Part shown: positions 16,758-62,237 of the stretch, one piece after another
How the letters are laid out: every line of letters begins with the position of its first letter
Position numbering within the stretch: the first letter of the stretch is position 1
From: a virus
Lineage: Duplodnaviria > Heunggongvirae > Uroviricota > Caudoviricetes
DNA: 64,000 nucleotides
Reading direction: 5' to 3' (one strand)
IMG/VR virus record: IMGVR_UViG_3300037471_001733
Location: 22,201 to 86,200 of that record
Translations under genes and position numbers: made by a program
The notes under the pieces: generated by a model
What the model saw: only the letters and a program-made list of their open reading frames with translations
Database searches by the model: none
What the model was told of the DNA's origin: nothing

Positions 16758-17132
16758 TCAGATGTCCCAGACGCCATCCACGGTCGCGCCGTGCGCCGCC
16801 TCGTGGGCGTGCGCCGCGATGGCCGCCACGAGGCGCCCGCCGGGCGTTGCTTCCAACGTATCGCCCTCGCTGCACTGGTACTGCAGGCACCGCGCCAGCG
16901 AATGGAACCATGCGGCGGTCTGATTTGGCATGGGGCGCGCCAGCAGTGCACGCAGGCCCTGCAGCGGCTGCCGATCCTCCGGGTAACGCCCCTCATAGCG
17001 GGTTGCGTGGGCGTAGTTGTTGGCTGCACGCAGCGAGATAGCCGCCTGCGCCGCATCGTCGGCGATGCCCTGGGAAACGGCCCATTGCGCCACGGTGGCC
17101 ACGTGCAGATCAGAGCAGATAAAGCAAGACAT
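16758..17132 (-). CDS. Hypothetical protein
   Basis: 124 aa; RBS AGGAGAT 7 nt before the ATG. Confidence 0.4.
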   Translation of the reverse strand: MSCFICSDLHVATVAQWAVSQGIADDAAQAAISLRAANNYAHATRYEGRYPEDRQPLQGLRALLARPMPNQTAAWFHSLARCLQYQCSEGDTLEATPGGRLVAAIAAHAHEAAHGATVDGVWDI

Positions 17133-17182
17133 GGTGTGATCTCCTATTGCCGCTCATGCTGGCGGCGCAGCGGGTTGAAGGG

Positions 17183-17453
17183 TTAGTCCTCGCGCGGTGT
17201 CTCAATTTGATGCGGCAGGGGTCGCCCCATGCCGTCGGCGCAGTAAAGGGACGTAGAAGCACCGCACGGCAGGTATGCCGGCGCGTCAATTGGCCCGCCT
17301 GCCGTCACATCCATACATGCCCCGTACCGAAATTGCCGCCGGTCTTGATGCAGATGGATCAATTCGACCGTCTGCCGTTGGACTTGCCCGCCGGTCACAT
17401 TGTGGAAAGCGCCAGCAGCAGCGCGGCGGATGGTTTCTGATTGCATGGACATG
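17183..17453 (-). CDS. Hypothetical protein
   Basis: 90 aa starting MSMQSE; preceded by the exact junction CTGAGGAGCGAACC-ATG. Confidence 0.45.
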
Positions 17454-17462
17454 GTTCGCTCC

Positions 17463-17691
17463 TCAGTTGAAGCCCTTGTCCGCCTCGATCTGGCGCAGGA
17501 TCTCGACTGCCTCAGCGATCGGCACGAAGTCAGACAGGGGGTCAACAATCGTTTTCTTGCCCACGGTCACCAGCACGACGCGAAACTTTCCGCGCGCCGC
17601 CTCAGTGCTGATTCCGGGCATGCCGGTGGCGGCGCGCGCGGCAAGGGTGGCGGCTCGCAATTGCTTGAGTTGCTCAAACATGGTTCGCTCC
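17463..17691 (-). CDS. Hypothetical protein
   Basis: 76 aa starting MFEQLK; preceded by CTGAGGAGCGAACC-ATG. Confidence 0.45.
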
Positions 17692-17931
17692 TCAGATACC
17701 GAAAACTTGATTGATCGCAGCGCGGCGCAGTGCCTCGCAGTGCATCTGCGCCACGGGTTGATTGATCTCGTCCACCACGTCAAGTGCATCGTTAACGGCA
17801 TCCATGAGATGCGCCATGGCGATATCTTCCGGGTTTGCTTCTACGTGATTGCGCAACTGCAGGCGGGCGCTCAGCAGGTTTTCGACGATCACGTCGAATT
17901 GCTTGACATGCATGGTCACAGGGGTGGGCAT
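17692..17931 (-). CDS. Hypothetical protein
   Basis: 79 aa starting MPTPVT; junction CTGAAAGGTCGAGCC-ATG. Confidence 0.4.
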   Translation of the reverse strand: MPTPVTMHVKQFDVIVENLLSARLQLRNHVEANPEDIAMAHLMDAVNDALDVVDEINQPVAQMHCEALRRAAINQVFGI

Positions 17932-17942
17932 GGCTCGACCTT

Positions 17943-18176
17943 TCAGCGCATGTTGATGTAACCCGGCATGCCGAGTGCGCGCGCCAGCACGTTTGCCGCG
18001 TGGCGGTCTGCAAGGTTGCATATCAGGTACTTGGCCTGCGCGACCGCTTCGAAGTGCGCGCTCTGCGCCTCTTCGTATTCCTGATGGGTTCGATTGCTGT
18101 CGCCGATCATGTGCACGTGGCCACCGATGGCGGGCCGCAATTCCTTGGCGATGCTGATGGCAGTTCGGATATTCAT
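17943..18176 (-). CDS. Hypothetical protein
   Basis: 77 aa starting MNIRTA; preceded by CTGAGGAGCGAACC-ATG. Confidence 0.45.
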   Translation of the reverse strand: MNIRTAISIAKELRPAIGGHVHMIGDSNRTHQEYEEAQSAHFEAVAQAKYLICNLADRHAANVLARALGMPGYINMR

Positions 18177-18186
18177 GGTTCGCTCC

Positions 18187-18318
18187 TCAGTGCGCCGCAC
18201 GAATGGCGGCAATGTCTGCATGGATCAGCGCGCGGACTTGCAGGCGGCGCACGAGGGATTGATCGTTGCGCATGGGTAGCAGAACCCGCAGCGCATACAT
18301 AAGAGAGAAACGAGACAT
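18187..18318 (-). CDS. Possible 43-aa leader ORF of the leftward operon
   Basis: MSRFSLMYALRVLLPMRNDQSLVRRLQVRALIHADIAAIRAAH; RBS AAGGGG; its TGA lies inside the CTGAGGAGCGAACC-ATG junction of the next gene. Confidence 0.3.
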   Translation of the reverse strand: MSRFSLMYALRVLLPMRNDQSLVRRLQVRALIHADIAAIRAAH

Positions 18319-18366
18319 CTCAACCCCTTGCCACTGATTACGCGCGGCGCCGTTTGGTATGTCTCT

Positions 18367-18395
18367 AATGTAGGCGATACGACTACATGATGCAA
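18367..18395 (-). promoter_or_regulatory. Leftward sigma70-like promoter with palindromic operator O1 in its spacer
   Basis: Minus strand TTGCAT-N17-TACATT; the spacer contains the palindrome ATGTAG-N9-CTACAT (18368-18388). Confidence 0.55.
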
Positions 18396-18660
18396 GCCCT
18401 TGCGCAAACTTTTTTCATGCGCCATGGCGGCGCGGCTGCACGTATATTGATAGTGCTGCGCCGCATAGGTGCGGCTTTGCTTTGCCTGCTCGCTTTTGCC
18501 TGCTGGTGCTGCAGCATGGGCACGAGTGCCTGCGCCATGGATGCGCCGCACTGGTCTGCGCGCCGTGCGCCGCCTCGTGCTGATCAGCTGCGCCGCCGGT
18601 CGAGCTGGTGCGCGACGTTGAGCGGCTGCCTCGTGCTGGCAATCGAGCGAGTGCGCGACC

Positions 18661-18770
18661 TGGCGCACCCCCTCTGATGGAAACACAGGCAACCCCCTGG
18701 AGTGGAAACACAGGCCAGGCGCACCCTCTCCACGGGAATTACGGAACCCCCTGAGATGGAAACAGGAATT
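18661..18770. repeat. Four tandem direct repeats of about 27 bp between the divergent promoters
   Basis: GCGCACCCCCTCTGATGGAAACACAGGC / CCCCCTGGAGTGGAAACACAGGCC / GCGCACCCTCTCCACGGGAATTACGG (degenerate) / CCCCCTGAGATGGAAACAGGAATT. Confidence 0.6.
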
Positions 18771-18784
18771 CACAAATAAACTAC

Positions 18785-18813
18785 TTGCGTTCTGTAGTCG
18801 TTGCGCCTACATT
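18785..18813 (+). promoter_or_regulatory. Rightward sigma70-like promoter with palindromic operator O2 in its spacer
   Basis: TTGCGT-N17-TACATT; the spacer contains CTGTAG-N9-CTACAT (18792-18812), about 60 bp upstream of the 18873 gene. Confidence 0.55.
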
Positions 18814-18872
18814 GGACACATCGCAGCACTGCTGCAGCGGCGCCACCCGCGACGAGTGGCACTGGAGTTGAT

Positions 18873-19547
18873 ATGTTTGGAAAATACGGCAAGCGGATTA
18901 CCGATCCTGCGGAACTGCGCGAGTATCGTTTGAGCTATGTCCCGGCCGCGCTGCGCGACCAGTGCCAGCACGTGAAGTGCAAAACCGGCGATGCTGAGGC
19001 GTGGATCTGGAGCGACAAGGGCCGCGCCTACGCGGTGGGTTTCTCCGGTCGCGGCAAACACCCGTGGTCGCGCAATGGTGGCCAGGGAGCGGCCTACTAC
19101 TTCAAAACCCCGGAAGCGCGCCGCTCCTGGGTTGCGGAACTGTTTGCAGACGCCATGGCCGACGCAAAGCGCGCCGAGGAGCGCAAGGCGCAAAAGGCCG
19201 CAGCGCGTGCAAAGCCGCACGCCTTGCAGGTGGGAGATGTGTTGCGCTCCTCCTGGGGGTACGACCAAACCAATATCGACTATTACGAGGTCACGAAGCT
19301 TGTCGGCTCACAGATGGTCGAGGTTCGGCGCATTGCCTGCCAGTCTGAGGAAACCGCGCACATGCAAGGCGTGAGCGTTCCCGCCCCTGGCCACTACATC
19401 GGCGAGCCGAAGCGTTGCAAGGTCTCCGACTACGGCAACCGCGACTCGGTCAAGGTGTCCGAGGTGGCGCACGCCTACAAGATGACCCCGCGCATCGTCG
19501 GCGGCGTCAAGGTTTTCAACTCGTCTAGCTGGACGGCCTACGCCTGA
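18873..19547 (+). CDS. Hypothetical protein (first gene of the rightward operon)
   Basis: Start moved to the internal ATG at 18873 (RBS GGAG 5 nt upstream); 224 aa; no family recognised. Confidence 0.5.
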   Translation: MFGKYGKRITDPAELREYRLSYVPAALRDQCQHVKCKTGDAEAWIWSDKGRAYAVGFSGRGKHPWSRNGGQGAAYYFKTPEARRSWVAELFADAMADAKRAEERKAQKAAARAKPHALQVGDVLRSSWGYDQTNIDYYEVTKLVGSQMVEVRRIACQSEETAHMQGVSVPAPGHYIGEPKRCKVSDYGNRDSVKVSEVAHAYKMTPRIVGGVKVFNSSSWTAYA

Positions 19548-19605
19548 TCAACCAGGGCCGCTCATGCGGCGGCCCCCTTACGTGAATTTCACAGGAGCAC
19601 CGACC

Positions 19606-19908
19606 ATGGGCACCACGACCGGCCGACTCTTCCGCACGATCCGCAGCACGGGACGTGGAAGCGACTACTTCGGCACCTGCGACCAGTGCGGCAAGCACAT
19701 GAGCGAATGCCACGTGAGCCAAGTTCAGCGCGAATATCGGCGCGACGATGGCACCACGTACACCGGGCCCGTGACCGGCGGCGCCTATGGGCATCGTGAG
19801 TGCTTGGTCAAGCACTTCGGCGAACCCGTCCCAGCGGTGACGCGCGAATCCGTGCGAGTTTCGCCCTTTACTGATCCGGCGCGCTTCCCCAAAACGCTGC
19901 GCGCCTGA
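19606..19908 (+). CDS. Hypothetical Cys/His zinc-binding protein
   Basis: 100 aa; CDQCGKH...CH...HREC; RBS AGGAG. Confidence 0.45.
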   Translation: MGTTTGRLFRTIRSTGRGSDYFGTCDQCGKHMSECHVSQVQREYRRDDGTTYTGPVTGGAYGHRECLVKHFGEPVPAVTRESVRVSPFTDPARFPKTLRA

Positions 19909-19944
19909 CCCCTTCCGTAGATTGCACAGCAGGAGCACCACACC

Positions 19945-20340: not shown

Positions 20341-20453
20341 CCCCTTCCGGCGCACTCGCAAGGGTGCGCATTGCGATGCAGCCACGCGGAAGCATCGCAA
20401 TGCGCCAGCGCGCATAACGGCGCCGTCCCGGCTTGAGGCGGCAGGAGATTCAG

Positions 20454-22262
20454 ATGTCAGCACAAGACTTGATTGTTAGGATCAACGCAGCCGCCCAGGT
20501 GGCCCCGGAGCAACTGCCCAAAGGGGCGCAGCCGCGCGACCACATGATTGCCTTTGAGTACACCGACGCCCACGGCACGCGCGGCTGCATGCGCATCCTG
20601 AACACCCGGGCGCGGCTGCTGGCCTTCGCTGAGCAGGTGCGGAAGAACGCGGCAGCATTCGACGGCAAGCCGCGCAGCAAGCCCGCCGGGCCGCGCAAGA
20701 TTGCCGGCGCATCCCCGCTTTCCACGGCGCGCGCACTGCTCAAGGATGGCGCGCGGGTTGAAGCCCTCGCAGCGCTTGAGGCGCGCGGCGGGGAGGTGTT
20801 TTTCGGCGCCGCTGGCGTGCCTGTGCTGCATCAGGTTGCACAGCGCGTGGAGCACGAGGGCCGCCGCTGGGTTGTCACGCGCTGCGCCGTTGATGGTCTC
20901 ATCTACCTCATTCACGAGGCGTCCGGGCTGTCAGCAGGCGGCAAGGGCTTGCCTGAGATGCGCAGCATTGCGGATGCCCTGGCGCGGCTTGAGCTCGTGC
21001 ACCGGGACGAGGCGGAAAACGGCTACCGGCAGCGAATGATTGCTGCGATCGAGCAAGCGGCGGATTACGACCAGCAGGCGGCGCGCGCGGCTTTCGAGGC
21101 GTGCGATGGTCTCAAGAGCAAGGATGCCGCGCCGGTGGCTCAGGAAGCGTACCAGCAGGCGCGCGCGCTGTCGGCGGCGCAGGTGGCGCCCGATGTCGAG
21201 CCGGCAGTAGATGCAGACCCCTCCCCGGTGGAAAGCGAAGCCGAGGCGGCACCCCCTGTAGCGGAAACGCCTGCGGCAGCTGACACCCCTGCAGCGGAAA
21301 TCGAGTCCAGCGCGCCGGCGGTTGCGCCAGCATCCCCTCCGGCGGATTCACAGGCAGGCGCTGCACCCCCTGCGATGGAAAGCGCGCAGCCTGCGCCGCT
21401 TGCCACCGCGCCAGGCCGATCGGATGCGCTCATCGCGCGGGCCATCGCTTGGGTTGCCGTAGTCTGGGGAACCGCCAGCGTGCCGAGCGTTGCGGACTAC
21501 CGCGCCGGCCGGTGCGATGACACATTCCCGTGGGCGGGCGGCAGCCGCGCCGCCGGCTATCTGACATGGGCCGACCTCATTGGCGAGTGCATGGCCGCGC
21601 TGGAGCGCGACGACAGCGCCGACCAGGCGGCACGAGACGCCGCACTGCAACCACCGACCCCCATCCGTAGGAAAGGCCCGCGACAACATGAGCAGCACAC
21701 CCCATCCCGTGCAACCCGCAGTGCCAACCGGCCGCGAGTGGTGGACCCGCGGGCTGCTCGACTGGCACGCCGAGGCGCTGCACGCCGCCCAGGAGATCGC
21801 CGCGCTGCGCGAATCACTGGCTGCGGAGCGCGCAATGGTCCGCGAGCTGCAGGAGGCGCTCGCTGCCCGCCGGCAGGCCGCTTGACCCCTTCCCGGGGAA
21901 TCACGGCGCCACAAGCTTGCCGCCCCTGGCGCGACGCCAGCGAAACCCGAGACTGCACCCATAAAAACCTGGAGCACAGCATGACCTACACCGAAGCCAT
22001 CCAAGCCCTGCGCGACGCTATTGCGCAGGCCCCGAAGGGTGAAAAGCTGCAAGCCTTCCAAGCCAAGCGGGAGAAGATAATAGGGGCAATGCCCAAGGTG
22101 GAAATCTGTGGCGGCGAGCAGTGCATCCGCTATCCCAAGGGCTACCGCTTTGACTGCGGTCGCGAGGTCCACACGGACTGGATGTGGCAACCGTTTGCCA
22201 GCGAGGAAATCGCCATGCGGCCTGGCAACCTGCCGTACATCCTGCGCATGCCGGCTGCCTGA
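20454..22262 (+). CDS. Large ORF with acidic Pro/Ala-rich repeat linker; the 3' third is doubtful (possible frameshift or composite of two or three genes)
   Basis: No stop from 20454 to 22262, but 21650-21980 translates as Arg-rich low-complexity while another frame gives a coiled-coil ORF (21688-21885); a separate RBS plus ATG at 21981 starts a Cys-containing C-terminal domain. Confidence 0.35.
   Translation: MSAQDLIVRINAAAQVAPEQLPKGAQPRDHMIAFEYTDAHGTRGCMRILNTRARLLAFAEQVRKNAAAFDGKPRSKPAGPRKIAGASPLSTARALLKDGARVEALAALEARGGEVFFGAAGVPVLHQVAQRVEHEGRRWVVTRCAVDGLIYLIHEASGLSAGGKGLPEMRSIADALARLELVHRDEAENGYRQRMIAAIEQAADYDQQAARAAFEACDGLKSKDAAPVAQEAYQQARALSAAQVAPDVEPAVDADPSPVESEAEAAPPVAETPAAADTPAAEIESSAPAVAPASPPADSQAGAAPPAMESAQPAPLATAPGRSDALIARAIAWVAVVWGTASVPSVADYRAGRCDDTFPWAGGSRAAGYLTWADLIGECMAALERDDSADQAARDAALQPPTPIRRKGPRQHEQHTPSRATRSANRPRVVDPRAARLARRGAARRPGDRRAARITGCGARNGPRAAGGARCPPAGRLTPSRGITAPQACRPWRDASETRDCTHKNLEHSMTYTEAIQALRDAIAQAPKGEKLQAFQAKREKIIGAMPKVEICGGEQCIRYPKGYRFDCGREVHTDWMWQPFASEEIAMRPGNLPYILRMPAA
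21688..21885 (+). CDS. Alternative-frame 65-aa coiled-coil ORF inside the large ORF
   Basis: RBS AGGAAAGG; MSSTPHPVQPAVPTGREWWTRGLLDWHAEALHAAQEIAALRESLAAERAMVRELQEALAARRQAA. Confidence 0.3.
   Translation: MSSTPHPVQPAVPTGREWWTRGLLDWHAEALHAAQEIAALRESLAAERAMVRELQEALAARRQAA
21981..22262 (+). CDS. Possible independent 93-aa Cys-containing protein (same frame as the large ORF)
   Basis: RBS TGGAG 6 nt before the ATG; CGGEQC...DCGREVH. Confidence 0.35.
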   Translation: MTYTEAIQALRDAIAQAPKGEKLQAFQAKREKIIGAMPKVEICGGEQCIRYPKGYRFDCGREVHTDWMWQPFASEEIAMRPGNLPYILRMPAA

Positions 22263-22404
22263 CGCATTGTCCGGTGGCGCAGCCTTTGGCGTTCAGCGCT
22301 ATTTGAACAAGGTGCGCGGTTTAGTTCAGGCGTACTTGAATAGCGCCCCCCCATGTAGTGAAAACAGGGCATCAACCCCATCCAGCGGATACAGGAGTCA
22401 AACC

Positions 22405-22695
22405 ATGGGAAGTATCAACCTCGGCCGCCACCACGTCGCCATCAGCGATCAATGGACGATCTACACCCCTGGCCTACCTGGCTGGCAGATGCTGGGCGTG
22501 ATCACCCGCAGCAAGGGTGGCGAGCAGATCACGAAGGCGCTGGCCCGCAGCCCGAAGGGCGAGCTCTGCGCGGTGCGTGGGCTGTCAGCCGAGCCGCTTG
22601 TCCAGCGAAAGGCTGAAGCGGCGCTGGCGGCTGCGATGCGCGAGGCCCATCCGGTGGAAACAGATGGCACCCATTCCGAGGGAAACAGGGCTTGA
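22405..22695 (+). CDS. Hypothetical protein
   Basis: 96 aa from the internal ATG with RBS AGGAG; the upstream part of the track ORF is GC-rich junk. Confidence 0.45.
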   Translation: MGSINLGRHHVAISDQWTIYTPGLPGWQMLGVITRSKGGEQITKALARSPKGELCAVRGLSAEPLVQRKAEAALAAAMREAHPVETDGTHSEGNRA

Positions 22696-22719
22696 ATATG
22701 TAGGTTAAGCGCCTACACT
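22691..22719 (+). promoter_or_regulatory. Promoter of the XRE gene with palindromic operator O3 in its spacer
   Basis: TTGAAT-N17-TACACT; the spacer is ATGTAG-N9-CTACAC (22698-22718), 8 bp before the ATG. Confidence 0.5.
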
Positions 22720-22725
22720 GGCATC

Positions 22726-22956
22726 ATGAGCACCTTACCGCCGCGCACGCCAGAGAACATCAAAGCCTTCCGCCAGCGTGCCGGCTGGACGCAGGAGAAG
22801 GCATGCGAGATGGCGTGCATCCACGACCGCCAAACCTGGCGTAAGTACGAAAACGGCACGCTCAAGATGAGCGAAGAGCGCTGGCGGCTGGCGCACTTTA
22901 TGGCCAACCTGCACCCCGACTTCGACGTTCGGCCGCGTACCAAGGCTGCGGCCTAG
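22726..22956 (+). CDS. XRE-family HTH transcriptional regulator (candidate operator-binding autoregulator)
   Basis: 76 aa; IKAFRQRAGWTQEKACEMACIHDRQTWRKYENG matches the HTH_XRE pattern. Confidence 0.7.
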   Translation: MSTLPPRTPENIKAFRQRAGWTQEKACEMACIHDRQTWRKYENGTLKMSEERWRLAHFMANLHPDFDVRPRTKAAA

Positions 22957-50366: not shown

Positions 50367-50432
50367 CCATCTAACTGATCCATGCCCGGCGCGGGCTGCG
50401 CGCCAATTCCACAGAAGACGGAGACGGAAACC

Positions 50433-51374
50433 ATGACTACTGCACTCGCTCTCATGAGCAACCGCCTGGCGCAACGCTTCGGCATGGTCGAAGACGCCGA
50501 GTTGATTCCTGTGCTCAAGGCAACTGCGTTCAAAGGTCAGGTCAGTGACGCGCAGATGACGGCGCTGCTGATCGTTGCCGATCAATACGGCCTGAATCCG
50601 TGGACCAAGGAAATCTACGCTTTCCCAGACCCGCAGAACGGCATCGTGCCGGTGGTCAGCGTTGACGGCTGGAGCCGCATCATCAATGAGCACCCCGCCT
50701 TCGACGGCATTGAGTTCGAGTTGTCCGGCAAGGGCGATGACATGGAGATGCTGTGCCGCATCTTCCGCAAGGACCGCAGCCGCCCGATCGCAGTGACGGA
50801 GTACTTGACCGAGTGCAAGCGTGAAACGAAGCCTTGGAAGTCTCACCCGCGACGCATGCTGCGTCACAAGGCTGAGATCCAATGCGCCCGATTGGCCTTC
50901 GGCTTCGCTGGGCTCCACGACCACGACGAGGCGGAGCGCATTGTGGAAGCATCGTCTGGCGCACCGAAGAACATGGGGGCAGCCCAGGTGGTCGAGGCCG
51001 CCGCAGCTGCGGAAATGCCGCTCGGCCTGCTGGAGTCAGCCGAGAGCGCTGCGACCGAAGGGGTGGCCATCTATCAGGAATTCTGGAAGTCAACCGGCCC
51101 GGAAAACCGCAAGGCGCTGGCTGGCCACCATGCGCGGCTGAAGCAAGCAGCCATTGACGCCGACGCGGCGCGCACGGTGGAGATGCCCACGACCGGCGGC
51201 CAAGCCGAGCAGCCCACGCTGGACCTGGTGGCGCTGGAGCGGCGCATCGGCAGCTGCAACGACGCTCAGGTGTTGCTGCTCATTGCCGACGACGTGGCCA
51301 CGCTGCCCGAGGGTGAGGATCGCGCGCGGCTGGAGAAGTTGATCGCGGTGCGCGGCGAAGCGCTGGAGGGCTGA
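50433..51374 (+). CDS. recT: RecT-family single-strand annealing protein
   Basis: LNPWTKEIYAFPDPQNGIVPVVSVDGWSRIINEHPAFDGIEFE...MLRHKAEIQCARLAFGF; RBS GGAGACGG. Confidence 0.8.
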   Translation: MTTALALMSNRLAQRFGMVEDAELIPVLKATAFKGQVSDAQMTALLIVADQYGLNPWTKEIYAFPDPQNGIVPVVSVDGWSRIINEHPAFDGIEFELSGKGDDMEMLCRIFRKDRSRPIAVTEYLTECKRETKPWKSHPRRMLRHKAEIQCARLAFGFAGLHDHDEAERIVEASSGAPKNMGAAQVVEAAAAAEMPLGLLESAESAATEGVAIYQEFWKSTGPENRKALAGHHARLKQAAIDADAARTVEMPTTGGQAEQPTLDLVALERRIGSCNDAQVLLLIADDVATLPEGEDRARLEKLIAVRGEALEG

Positions 51375-61424: not shown

Positions 61425-61738
61425 AGCTGCGTCAACTCAAGCGGAAGCACGTCGGGCGCCTGCGCCTGCGCATCGTCATGGCGCGCATGGCCGCGCTGAG
61501 GATCGAGTGGGACCGCGCCTTAGACGACATGGCCGGCGCGATGGCAAAGGCCATCCTTGGCTATGGCGAGGCGATCAAGCAGCGCCTGCTACTGGTCTTC
61601 AACAAGACCGGCGATCTCGTGGCCCACAGCGATACCGCTTGCCAACCGGACACGCCGATGACCATGGGCCTGATCCCCGCCAACACGCAAATCAAAGGCC
61701 ACATCGCCAGTGCGCCGCTGGAAATGCATGACCGATAG
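61406..61738 (+). CDS. Hypothetical protein
   Basis: 110 aa. Confidence 0.35.
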   Translation: MEVATLKLRQLKRKHVGRLRLRIVMARMAALRIEWDRALDDMAGAMAKAILGYGEAIKQRLLLVFNKTGDLVAHSDTACQPDTPMTMGLIPANTQIKGHIASAPLEMHDR

Positions 61739-62237
61739 CAACTTCCCCGACACCCCTACCCTGCGCGACGAGTTCGCTCTGCACGCCCCCATTGATTTCA
61801 ACGCGGCGCTGCGCCTATGGGGCGATGCGGACGCTGACTTGGTCAACGACGCGAACCGGGTCACGTTCATGATGCTCTGGGCGATGCACCGGTACGACTA
61901 CGCCGACGCCATGCTGGCTCAGCGCGACGAGCCACAGCGTGAGCCCGGGCAGCCGTTGCCATCCGGTGAGGACCGGCGCCTGGACCGCAAGCTGGTGACG
62001 CTCGACTTCTGGGACTACCGCGTCACGAAGCCTCTGGCCACCGCCGGCATCGAGACCCTGCGACAGCTGCTGGCGCTGGACATCTACCAGCTCGACGCCA
62101 TCAAGGGCATCGGGCCGGACGGGCTGCGCGACATCATCGACCGGCTCAACCGCGAGGGGCTGCGCCTGGCGCCAAAGGCAGCGCCAGCATTCGTGGACGA
62201 TGCGCCTGGGATCGGCGAAGAGACGATTGGGGGCTGA
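61728..62237 (+). CDS. Helix-hairpin-helix protein (alpha-CTD-like); domain paralog of 40299-40820
   Basis: LDIYQLDAIKGIGPDGLRDIIDRLNREGL. Confidence 0.45.
   Translation: MTDSNFPDTPTLRDEFALHAPIDFNAALRLWGDADADLVNDANRVTFMMLWAMHRYDYADAMLAQRDEPQREPGQPLPSGEDRRLDRKLVTLDFWDYRVTKPLATAGIETLRQLLALDIYQLDAIKGIGPDGLRDIIDRLNREGLRLAPKAAPAFVDDAPGIGEETIGG

Follow-up and report, generated by a model that had tools for sequence, protein, structure and literature searches.

Why should four short direct repeats be kept, without a gene of their own, between two divergent promoters of a prophage? The question is raised by 64,000 nucleotides of IMG/VR virus record IMGVR_UViG_3300037471_001733 (the window, by which we mean this whole stretch), a temperate siphophage-type prophage of the Burkholderiales type, in which the repeats occupy positions 18667-18769, inside a gap of 555 bp that is free of genes and separates the first leftward gene from the first rightward one. 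The repeat is bipartite, locked in orientation and tied to stop and start codons, it is kept in two phages whose operators have diverged, and a gene-less array of it is retained. Our preferred reading, to which we give an even chance of being correct, is that the four copies are an orphan cluster of a junction-repeat family that acts in cis on expression and also serves as a set of recombination joints.

Array units at 18667-18769

The array consists of the following elements:

18667..18690, plus strand: array unit A1, ACCCCCTCTGATGGAAACACAGGC, an exact match to CCCCCT-N4-TGGAAACA starting at 18668
18692..18715, plus strand: array unit A2, ACCCCCTGGAGTGGAAACACAGGC, an exact motif match starting at 18693 and the best conserved unit
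18719..18745, plus strand: array unit A3, degenerate, GCGCACCCTCTCCACGGGAATTACGGA
18746..18769, plus strand: array unit A4, ACCCCCTGAGATGGAAACAGGAAT, an exact motif match starting at 18747
18659-18714 and 18715-18770, plus strand: two 56-bp double units, both beginning with CCWGGCGCACCC (repeat search, spacing 56)

All four sequences quoted in the first-pass annotation of this DNA were recovered at 18667-18769, and four units do stand in a row; the regular 27-bp tandem array in which they had been placed did not hold up, since the unit-to-unit spacing is 25, ~31 and ~24 bp and the true period of the array is the 56-bp double unit. A repeat search of the array returned three copies (100, 83 and 71% identity, spacing 25 and 54), and Tandem Repeats Finder reported nothing at this site because of the irregular spacing. 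The motif CCCCCT-N4-TGGAAACA is non-random and far above chance: the window holds three exact copies and, at ≤2 mismatches, seven matches against the 0.26 expected from shuffles, none of which attained seven. All seven are on the plus strand between 18668 and 22662, and at ≤3 mismatches 11 of 14 matches fall inside the same 4-kb stretch. Two outlying sites that had been pointed out, GAAAACAGGGC and GGAAACAGGGC, also exist, though at 22360 and 22681, a few bases off the positions originally quoted.

Junction units in a related prophage and along the window operon

On our reading, the array units belong to a family found at most operon junctions, which goes beyond what the first-pass annotation could see. 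The large open reading frame (ORF) at 20454-22262 has a single homologue among 5.8 billion proteins, in Azohydromonas aeria (58% identity), and the contig that carries it (L130) is a prophage with a layout like that of the window, the sole detectable relative. Most junctions of its rightward operon read stop-CCCCTTCC-N5-6-(C)TTTGACAGGAGCC-N5-ATG (with the box also written TTTGACAGGAG); a C-tract is present in 16 of 19 junctions and starts no more than 3 nt from the stop in 12 of these 19, while the Shine-Dalgarno box lies 5 to 10 nt from the start. In long spacers, the C-tract remains at the stop and the box remains at the start, and the unit is therefore made up of a stop-associated half and a start-associated half. 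The strand bias is nearly complete, with 17 matches on the plus strand and none on the minus strand for the pattern CCCC[CT]T[TCA][CA]C and, for a looser C-tract pattern over the relative's 20 kb, 34 against 2.

The rightward accessory operon of the window is organized in the same way, with a C-tract directly 3' of the stop, a box that forms the Shine-Dalgarno sequence 5 to 10 nt before the next start, and all copies oriented with transcription. A full unit (~20 to 25 nt) is composed of a C-tract, CCCC(C)T(T)CC, 4 to 6 variable bases and a GG/W3/CAC box, often with AGG(AG); the box comes in an array subtype (GGAAACA) and a junction subtype (TTTGACA or TTTCACA). A weight matrix trained on 22 A. 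aeria junction units alone was scored on the window, and its five best scores (13.9 to 20.1 bits, at 19908, 21885, 20340, 21332 and 19573) were all on the plus strand and inside the module, the best score elsewhere in the window being 11.9 bits. Strong matrix scores are thus confined to 19.5 to 22 kb, the structural and other operons of the window reaching none, and a profile search with nhmmer agrees with this picture. The junction units and unit pairs are as follows:

19573..19597, plus strand: junction unit before gene 19606-19908, CCCCCTTACGTGAATTTCACAGGAG, then 8 nt and ATG (nhmmer E 0.027; 13.9 bits)
19909..19935, plus strand: junction unit adjoining the stop TGA 19906-19908, CCCCTTCCGTAGATTGCACAGCAGGAG, before ATG 19945 (20.1 bits, top matrix score)
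20341..20364, plus strand: stop-associated C-tract unit, TGA-CCCCTTCCGGCGCAC... (18.3 bits)
21886..21909, plus strand: junction unit within the nominal 602-aa ORF, ACCCCTTCCCGGGGAATCAC, directly 3' of a +1-frame TGA and preceding ATG 21981 (18.8 bits)
22349..22397, plus strand: unit pair B1/B2, CCCCATGTAGTGAAAACAGGG and CCCCATCCAGCGGATACAGGAG, spacing 27
22645..22690, plus strand: unit pair C1/C2, GCCCATCCGGTGGAAACAG and CCCATTCCGAGGGAAACAGGG, within the final 17 codons of gene 22405-22695 and adjoining the -35 hexamer of the predicted promoter P3

The junctions at 19573, 19909, 20341, 21886 and 22349/22376 conform to the A. aeria rule; a C-tract is present in five of six window junctions and abuts the stop or lies within 3 nt of it in three of the six. 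The layout at 19909 is TGA-CCCCTTCC...CAGCAGGAGCACC...ATG, and B2 (CCCCATCCAGCGGATACAGGAG-N7-ATG) provides the Shine-Dalgarno sequence of gene 22405-22695. At 20341, the unit is parted from its Shine-Dalgarno sequence by a 113-nt spacer, ahead of the large ORF, that holds a perfect 14-bp hairpin (20366-20405; arms GCGCATTGCGATGC and GCATCGCAATGCGC, 12-nt loop); GC-rich hairpins likewise lie between the two halves of the unit in long spacers of the relative. C1 overlaps a weakly conserved PPV(E/D) peptide. Additionally, the long spacer before gene 22405 (22290-22345) shares a stretch with the spacer before the relative's last operon gene (L130 18440-18500; GCTATTTGAACAAGGTGCGCGGTTTAGTTCAGGCGTACTTGAATAGC in the window versus GCTATTTGCACAAGACGCGCAGATCAGTTCAAGCTTAGTTGCACAGC in the relative), and this stretch, which in the window contains TGAAC-N15-GTTCA, may be another regulatory site.

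The A. aeria prophage also has a four-unit orphan array (L130:5114-5225), which aligns unit for unit with that of the window. Between window positions 18659-18770 and L130:5105-5225, 71 of 103 positions are identical (z = 9.1), compared with a z of ~4.2 for the adjoining spacer and promoter. The number of units (four), their order and the 56-bp double-unit structure are all retained in both phages, the proteins of which are 58 to 76% identical. In the relative's array, a1, a3 and a4 are of the junction type (e.g., CCCCTTCCCGGGGTTTCACA) and a2 is of the array type (CCCCCTGCAGCGGAAACG; 17 of 19 positions identical to A2), and the degenerate unit A3 resembles junction-type units of the relative (CCCCTTCCCGGGAATTGAGA). 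Conversely, array-type units occur at junction positions, namely, at L130:14415 (CCCCTTGCAGTGGAAACACGA-ATG) and as B2 in the window. Ordinary junctions sometimes carry two or three tandem units, and a run of four thus stands at the far end of a graded series. What surrounds the array differs between the phages: the conserved block comprises the leftward promoter, a GC-rich spacer and the array, and in A. aeria the next elements after this block are a convergent terminator and three leftward genes, the distance to the rightward promoter being 1.4 kb.

Copies within coding sequence

21218..21383, plus strand: five in-frame coding units (21218, 21252, 21286, 21333 and 21366), encoding PSPVES/PPVAET/TPAAEI/SPPADS/PPAMES in an acidic Pro/Glu linker

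The recurrence of the repeat inside the large ORF had been noted previously, and the copies do exist, in frame, as five units. A link between non-coding and coding repeats is borne out by the clustered, strand-specific motif and by the coding unit at 21332 (ATCCCCTCCGGCGGATTCACAGGC), which has the fourth-best junction-matrix score in the window. In the A. aeria homologue, two linkers of this kind, with PxPxE(S/T) repeats (PAPAVES, PAPMES, PPPAAET, PAPVES), stand around a segment of ~145 residues that is missing from the window protein, and the linker repeats therefore coincide with a domain insertion or deletion.

More than one gene is probably contained in the nominal 602-aa ORF. Homology to A. 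aeria ends near residue 394, and the next ~120 residues are Arg-rich and seemingly out of frame. A +1-frame ORF (from 21580, or ATG 21688, to 21885) encodes a coiled-coil-like product (...REWWTRGLLDWHAEALHAAQEIAALRESLAAERAMVRELQEALAARRQAA) and ends in a TGA that abuts the junction unit at 21886; an in-frame ATG at 21981, the product of which begins MTYTEAIQ..., has a GGAG of its own. Frame 0 has no stop before 22262, and the relative's 773-aa ORF also crosses an internal junction unit.

Cassette behavior and the search for further relatives

Only three module proteins are common to the two phages. One of them, encoded by a 131-aa gene (76% identical), is third in the window operon and tenth in that of the relative, among unrelated neighbors, and its nucleotide homology runs from the preceding stop/C-tract to just past the following C-tract. 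Together with the linkers that flank a domain insertion or deletion, this cassette behavior supports the earlier suggestion of a recombination-prone repeat common to coding and non-coding DNA. A third homologue of the 131-aa gene (L155, 67% identity) is found in a phage that lacks junction units.

Genes for an LPD29/LPD30-domain protein and an AcrVA2-like protein are present in the module of the relative (L130 5508-6335, minus strand, and 17111-18421, plus strand), and the C terminus of the LPD protein is matched by residues 323-362 of the large ORF in the window. On the basis of these similarities, the operon that carries the junction units may be an anti-defense or accessory cassette array, which the repeats may organize.

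Further searches were directed at the motif and at its neighbors. Motif and operator were absent from 48 genome loci and 80 viral loci that carry homologues of the 224-aa first rightward gene, the array region had no blastn match among phage records, the 76-aa helix-turn-helix (HTH) gene had no relative in viral contigs, and Ralstonia phage YO103_6 has no junction units. A viral scan with CCCCTTCC-N3-12-TTNACAGGAG gave only chance matches besides the A. aeria contig, and metagenome and viral scans with AACCCCCTGSAGYGGAAAC gave eight chance coding matches plus the A. aeria contig again. One Logan contig (L049) is an identical copy and hence uninformative, and the pattern matches in L055, L061 and L063 were rejected as ordinary GCCCCTTCGGGGGC terminator hairpins.

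Predicted promoters, operators and the GC-rich spacer

The surroundings of the array and the third promoter comprise the following features:

18187-18318, minus strand: first leftward gene, 43 aa
18359..18396, minus strand: P_L, predicted leftward promoter/operator (-35 TTGCAT 18390-18395; -10 TACATT 18367-18372; operator 18369-18387)
18397..18658: GC-rich spacer from the leftward promoter to the array, without a called gene or a frame conserved in the relative
18784..18821, plus strand: P_R, predicted rightward promoter/operator (-35 TTGCGT 18785-18790; -10 TACATT 18808-18813; operator TGTAGTCGTTGCGCCTACA 18793-18811)
18873-19547, plus strand: first rightward gene, 224 aa, phrog_37844
22692..22719, plus strand: P3, predicted third promoter/operator (TTGAAT-N16-TACACT; operator 22699-22717)
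22726..22956, plus strand: 76-aa HTH_31/XRE-type regulator (Pfam-type domain match)

That the repeats lie between divergent promoters is a sound prediction: members of a promoter family with palindromic operators stand on both sides, although a generic sigma-70 scan flagged none of P_L, P_R and P3. A 38-nt inverted repeat (18359-18396 and 18784-18821, 82% complementary) consists of two copies of TTGCNT-N17-TACATT, both arms of which hold the palindrome TGTAG-N9-CTACA in the promoter spacer. The pattern of the promoter family, TTG-N15-17-SGCCTAnnnT, occurs exactly three times in the window (18367-18395, minus strand; 18785-18813 and 22692-22719, plus strand), with four occurrences in L154, the 20-kb locus of the relative (2478, 4310, 4365 and 12741); around the array it takes the form TTG-N16/17-CGCCTAnnnT. 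The operator in the promoter spacer is specific to each phage: the window has TGTAG-N9-CTACA, and A. aeria has CATGCC-N4-CGCCTA. P_L is predicted to drive the 43-aa gene and the genes beyond it. P_R lies close to the array, with 15 nt between the end of A4 and its -35 hexamer. The P3 transcript is probably leaderless, as is the lambda cI mRNA, since the ATG of the HTH gene at 22726 is only 6 nt past the -10 hexamer. The TGTAG-N9-CTACA operators are probably read by the 76-aa HTH protein.

As far as can be told from the sequence, the array is non-coding. The gene caller applied to the public contig left the gap around it empty, a six-frame comparison of the window and A. aeria spacers gave no preferred frame, and the relative's spacer is 80 to 90% GC in all three phases, with no codon periodicity. 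No Rfam family matched anywhere in the window at the gathering threshold, or in 18200-18950 at E ≤10, and a scan for tRNA and tmRNA found neither. Spacer and array together gave folding z values of -0.8 and -2.0 on the plus strand and -2.7 and -2.2 on the minus strand, which are unconvincing. A sigma-54 promoter, a DnaA box, an integration host factor (IHF) site and a G-quadruplex were each considered and dropped on reading the sequence.

Two further observations concern the GC-rich spacer. A terminator-like hairpin (18455-18485, plus strand; GCTGCGCCGCATAGGTGCGGC, then TTTGCTTTGC) lies ~60 nt from the P_L -35 hexamer, with no plus-strand promoter detected farther upstream. An exact direct repeat of 21 nt, CGCGCCGTGCGCCGCCTCGTG, is present at 18559-18579 and again at 16785-16805, in the 3' part of leftward gene 16758-17132, where it encodes HEAAHGA (minus strand); the similarity is confined to the 21 nt.

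A possible role in expression and recombination

We propose that the junction units would influence the expression of the cistron that follows, in cis and in the sense orientation, and most likely at the level of the mRNA or the ribosome, which would fit the translation-level proposal made for the start-associated sequences (SAS) of cluster K mycobacteriophages (PMC3203893). Because the unit is the same in both phages while the repressor operators have diverged, its reader would probably be a host factor or an otherwise conserved factor, possibly the translation machinery, rather than the repressor encoded in the module. As DNA, the units would supply identical short flanks to each cassette, and genes and domain segments would be gained, lost and reordered. 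The array beside P_R would then be a gene-less run of junction units, either left over from such rearrangements or retained as clustered sites of that factor.

Several observations weigh against this proposal. The array is situated upstream of P_R, and the promoter searches yielded none from which it would be transcribed; an RNA-level role is hard to apply to an element that is apparently untranscribed. Its conservation, which exceeds that of its flanks, suggests a function of its own that the proposal does not specify, and an array that is conserved yet apparently untranscribed would fit a DNA-level reader, as with the stoperators (PMC9283540) or in line with the suggestion made for extended SAS (ESAS). 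The folding of single units is not better than that of shuffles (z ~0 or above), and they share no RNA structure, so that no mechanism is visible; on the same grounds, an RNA hairpin or masking of the Shine-Dalgarno sequence was rejected. The junction matrix ranks A1 to A4 at 66, 145, 40 and 2535, respectively, and the nhmmer junction profile has no match on the array units, and for this reason the link is indirect, their membership in the family resting on orthology and shared architecture rather than on resemblance of the motif itself. Finally, only two independent genomes carry the family, the viral and metagenome scans having given no others.

Alternative explanations

The units might instead be double-stranded DNA sites of a sequence-specific regulator, with the array cluster activating or repressing P_R or the leftward promoter and the junction copies blocking elongation in one orientation, as stoperators do. 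We consider this possible but rather unlikely. The sites are asymmetric, orientation-locked and intergenic, with a cluster beside a promoter, a general layout similar to that of stoperators (PMC9283540); a unit pair also stands shortly before P3 (22645/22670) and another shortly before gene 22405, and the swap between AAA and TTT subtypes preserves an A/T tract, which we take to be tolerable to a shape-reading protein. The greater conservation of the gene-less, apparently untranscribed array relative to its flanks points the same way, and DNA binding is also favored by the authors describing ESAS. However, the promoters bear a different, palindromic operator, and the only recognizable DNA-binding protein, the 76-aa HTH protein, fits that palindrome. 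The distance from C-tract to box varies by several bases and the halves part in long spacers, which would be awkward for one rigid protein, and the anchoring of the C-tract to stops even in long spacers would be needless for a DNA site. The neighboring candidate for a binding protein, gene 22405-22695, is an orphan that we rejected (a single distant homologue, a low-confidence structure model with a pLDDT of 51.6 and no PDB match). The activator sites proposed in the first-pass annotation are not supported, on similar grounds, given the different palindromic operator beside the HTH gene, and are further weakened because the relative's array is not adjacent to its rightward promoter.

A more far-reaching version of the recombination part of our proposal, which we think improbable, makes the units the boundaries of an integrase-free gene-cassette system, in which every accessory gene would bear a C-tract anchored to its stop and a box anchored to its start, a short-homology recombinase (the prophage has a gene of the RecT family) would insert, delete and reorder cassettes, empty runs such as the array would persist or, on readthrough, become "exonized" as disordered, domain-joining PPxxE(S/T) linkers like that of the large ORF, and the units would also set cassette translation. 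If this were true, any incoming gene would be expressed via the units.

Alternatively, the array may consist of functionless scars, units left by gene deletion or multiplied by slippage and inherited by both phages. The runs of two or three units at ordinary junctions are in keeping with this, as are the degenerate Shine-Dalgarno boxes of the array units (CAGGC/CGGAA/CAGGAA), which no start codon follows, and the placement of the block of promoter, GC-rich spacer and array in different gene contexts, as expected for mosaic leftovers. The retention of unit number, unit order and double-unit structure, and an array z that is more than twice that of the spacer despite the divergence of the proteins, lead us to regard scars as quite unlikely.

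That the array is a decayed protein-coding fragment, the remnant of a PPxxET-type acidic linker like that at 21218-21383, is a very doubtful idea. It draws on the unusual CCC-CCT and GAA codons common to both and on the fact that each strong array unit translates, in its own frame, as PP-x-x-ET, with A2 and A4 in one frame that is open from 18678 to a TAA at 18777. Yet A1 is out of frame with A2, the spacers of window and relative show no frame-specific similarity, six-frame and blastn comparisons of spacer and array with both operons gave unit-sized matches only, and the relative's array units are of the junction type rather than the linker type.

Least credible of all are iterons of a replication origin or a partition site, bound by an initiator or centromere-binding protein: four non-coding direct repeats do precede a short (20-bp) A/T-rich patch (AATTCACAAATAAACTAC), but their spacing is irregular, family searches with the neighboring proteins revealed no Rep/O/ParB-like or other initiator gene in the module, the replication-type gene (DnaC/IstB-like) is 22 kb off, no DnaA-box-like sequence was noticed on reading the array (no pattern search was made), and related units stand at most gene junctions, unlike iterons.

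Other features of the prophage

Outside the module, the window contains the following features:

7.8-14 kb, minus strand: terminase small and large subunits, portal, protease and major head protein
14.5-15.5 kb, minus strand: HNH endonuclease
40.8 kb: DnaC/IstB-like gene
50379-51374: RecT-family gene
54.9 kb: RdgC

The nearest large terminase is that of Ralstonia phage YO103_6 (66% identity). A 187-aa protein (61674-62237, plus strand) has weak, sub-threshold matches to HHH_5 and to the RNA polymerase alpha C-terminal domain (E 8e-5 and 2e-4).

Comparison with known systems

The iterons of the lambda origin lie inside the linker of the O gene. Like lambda and plasmid iterons, the present repeats combine direct repeats in non-coding DNA with related copies in a low-complexity coding linker; unlike them, they are irregularly spaced, have no initiator gene nearby and are dispersed over most junctions.

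Modules of mosaic temperate phages are flanked by conserved boundary or linker sequences, and integron attC sites flank cassettes. Such sequences resemble the units described here in that the same short sequence, directly 3' of a stop, flanks the cassettes, and the shared 131-aa cassette, which is placed differently in the operons of the two phages and loses its homology at the units, adds to the likeness. However, attC is an imperfect palindrome of 57 to 141 nt that folds as single-stranded DNA, whereas the units are ~20 nt long and do not fold better than shuffles. Among the scanned proteins, there was no member of the integrase family, and neither an attC-like palindrome nor an attI was found; exchange would have to be driven by homology, a RecT-family gene being present at 50379-51374.

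Stoperators, known from cluster A mycobacteriophages with L5 gp71-type repressors (PMC9283540), are likewise asymmetric, lie in short intergenic spaces, are oriented along transcription and have further copies at or near a promoter. A stoperator, however, has the same 13-bp sequence as the promoter operator and is read by the immunity repressor (PMC9283540), whereas the promoters here have a separate palindromic operator: no junction unit lies inside the three promoters, and the TGTAG-N9-CTACA palindrome sits between -35 and -10. The units are, moreover, bipartite with variable spacing, unlike stoperators, and a two-domain protein of the stoperator-repressor type (N-terminal HTH plus stoperator domain, binding as a monomer) was not evident in the module, which has a single HTH_31 protein and other proteins without a Pfam match.

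The closest known analogues, which we regard as analogues and not as members of the same family, are the SAS and ESAS of actinobacteriophages, described for cluster K mycobacteriophages and cluster EF Microbacterium phages (PMC3203893, PMC7302621). In our full-text literature searches, none of which was aimed at that question, we met no description from proteobacterial phages, all reports of such signals, which are poorly understood, being from actinobacteriophages. For more than a decade, dispersed repeats of fixed orientation have been catalogued there at gene starts, and PMC3203893 and PMC7302621 give no mechanism for them. The practical reach of the present family is limited, since it occurs in two genomes only and is known here from sequence alone.

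SAS and ESAS (PMC3203893, PMC7302621) share with the present family that they are short asymmetric repeats in many copies, all along transcription, that they are confined to non-structural or accessory genes, that a second, more variable element lies just upstream, and that the motif is conserved across phages while the downstream genes differ. Like the junction units, although not like the four array units, they take the position of the ribosome-binding site, a few nucleotides before starts, and in both families an AGGAG core has conserved flanks (ACAGGAGCC here, GGGATAGGAGCCC in SAS). The sequences themselves are different: only AGGAGCC is common to the SAS consensus (GGGATAGGAGCCC in cluster K, GGGAAAGGACCCC in cluster EF) and to CCCCTTCC-N5-TTTGACAGGAGCC. 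The host phylum also differs, the present prophage being of the Burkholderiales type, and the upstream element there is a 17-bp inverted repeat, whereas here it is a stop-anchored C-tract. This C-tract, the orphan tandem array and the in-frame linker copies are new, and the last two were not met in the SAS descriptions consulted. Set beside the actinobacteriophage repeats, the present family, from a high-GC prophage of proteobacteria, is independent of them and unrelated in sequence, and its stop-anchored half-site, its conserved gene-less array by a promoter and its in-frame linker copies at a domain insertion or deletion make it easier to test whether such repeats work through RNA, DNA or recombination.

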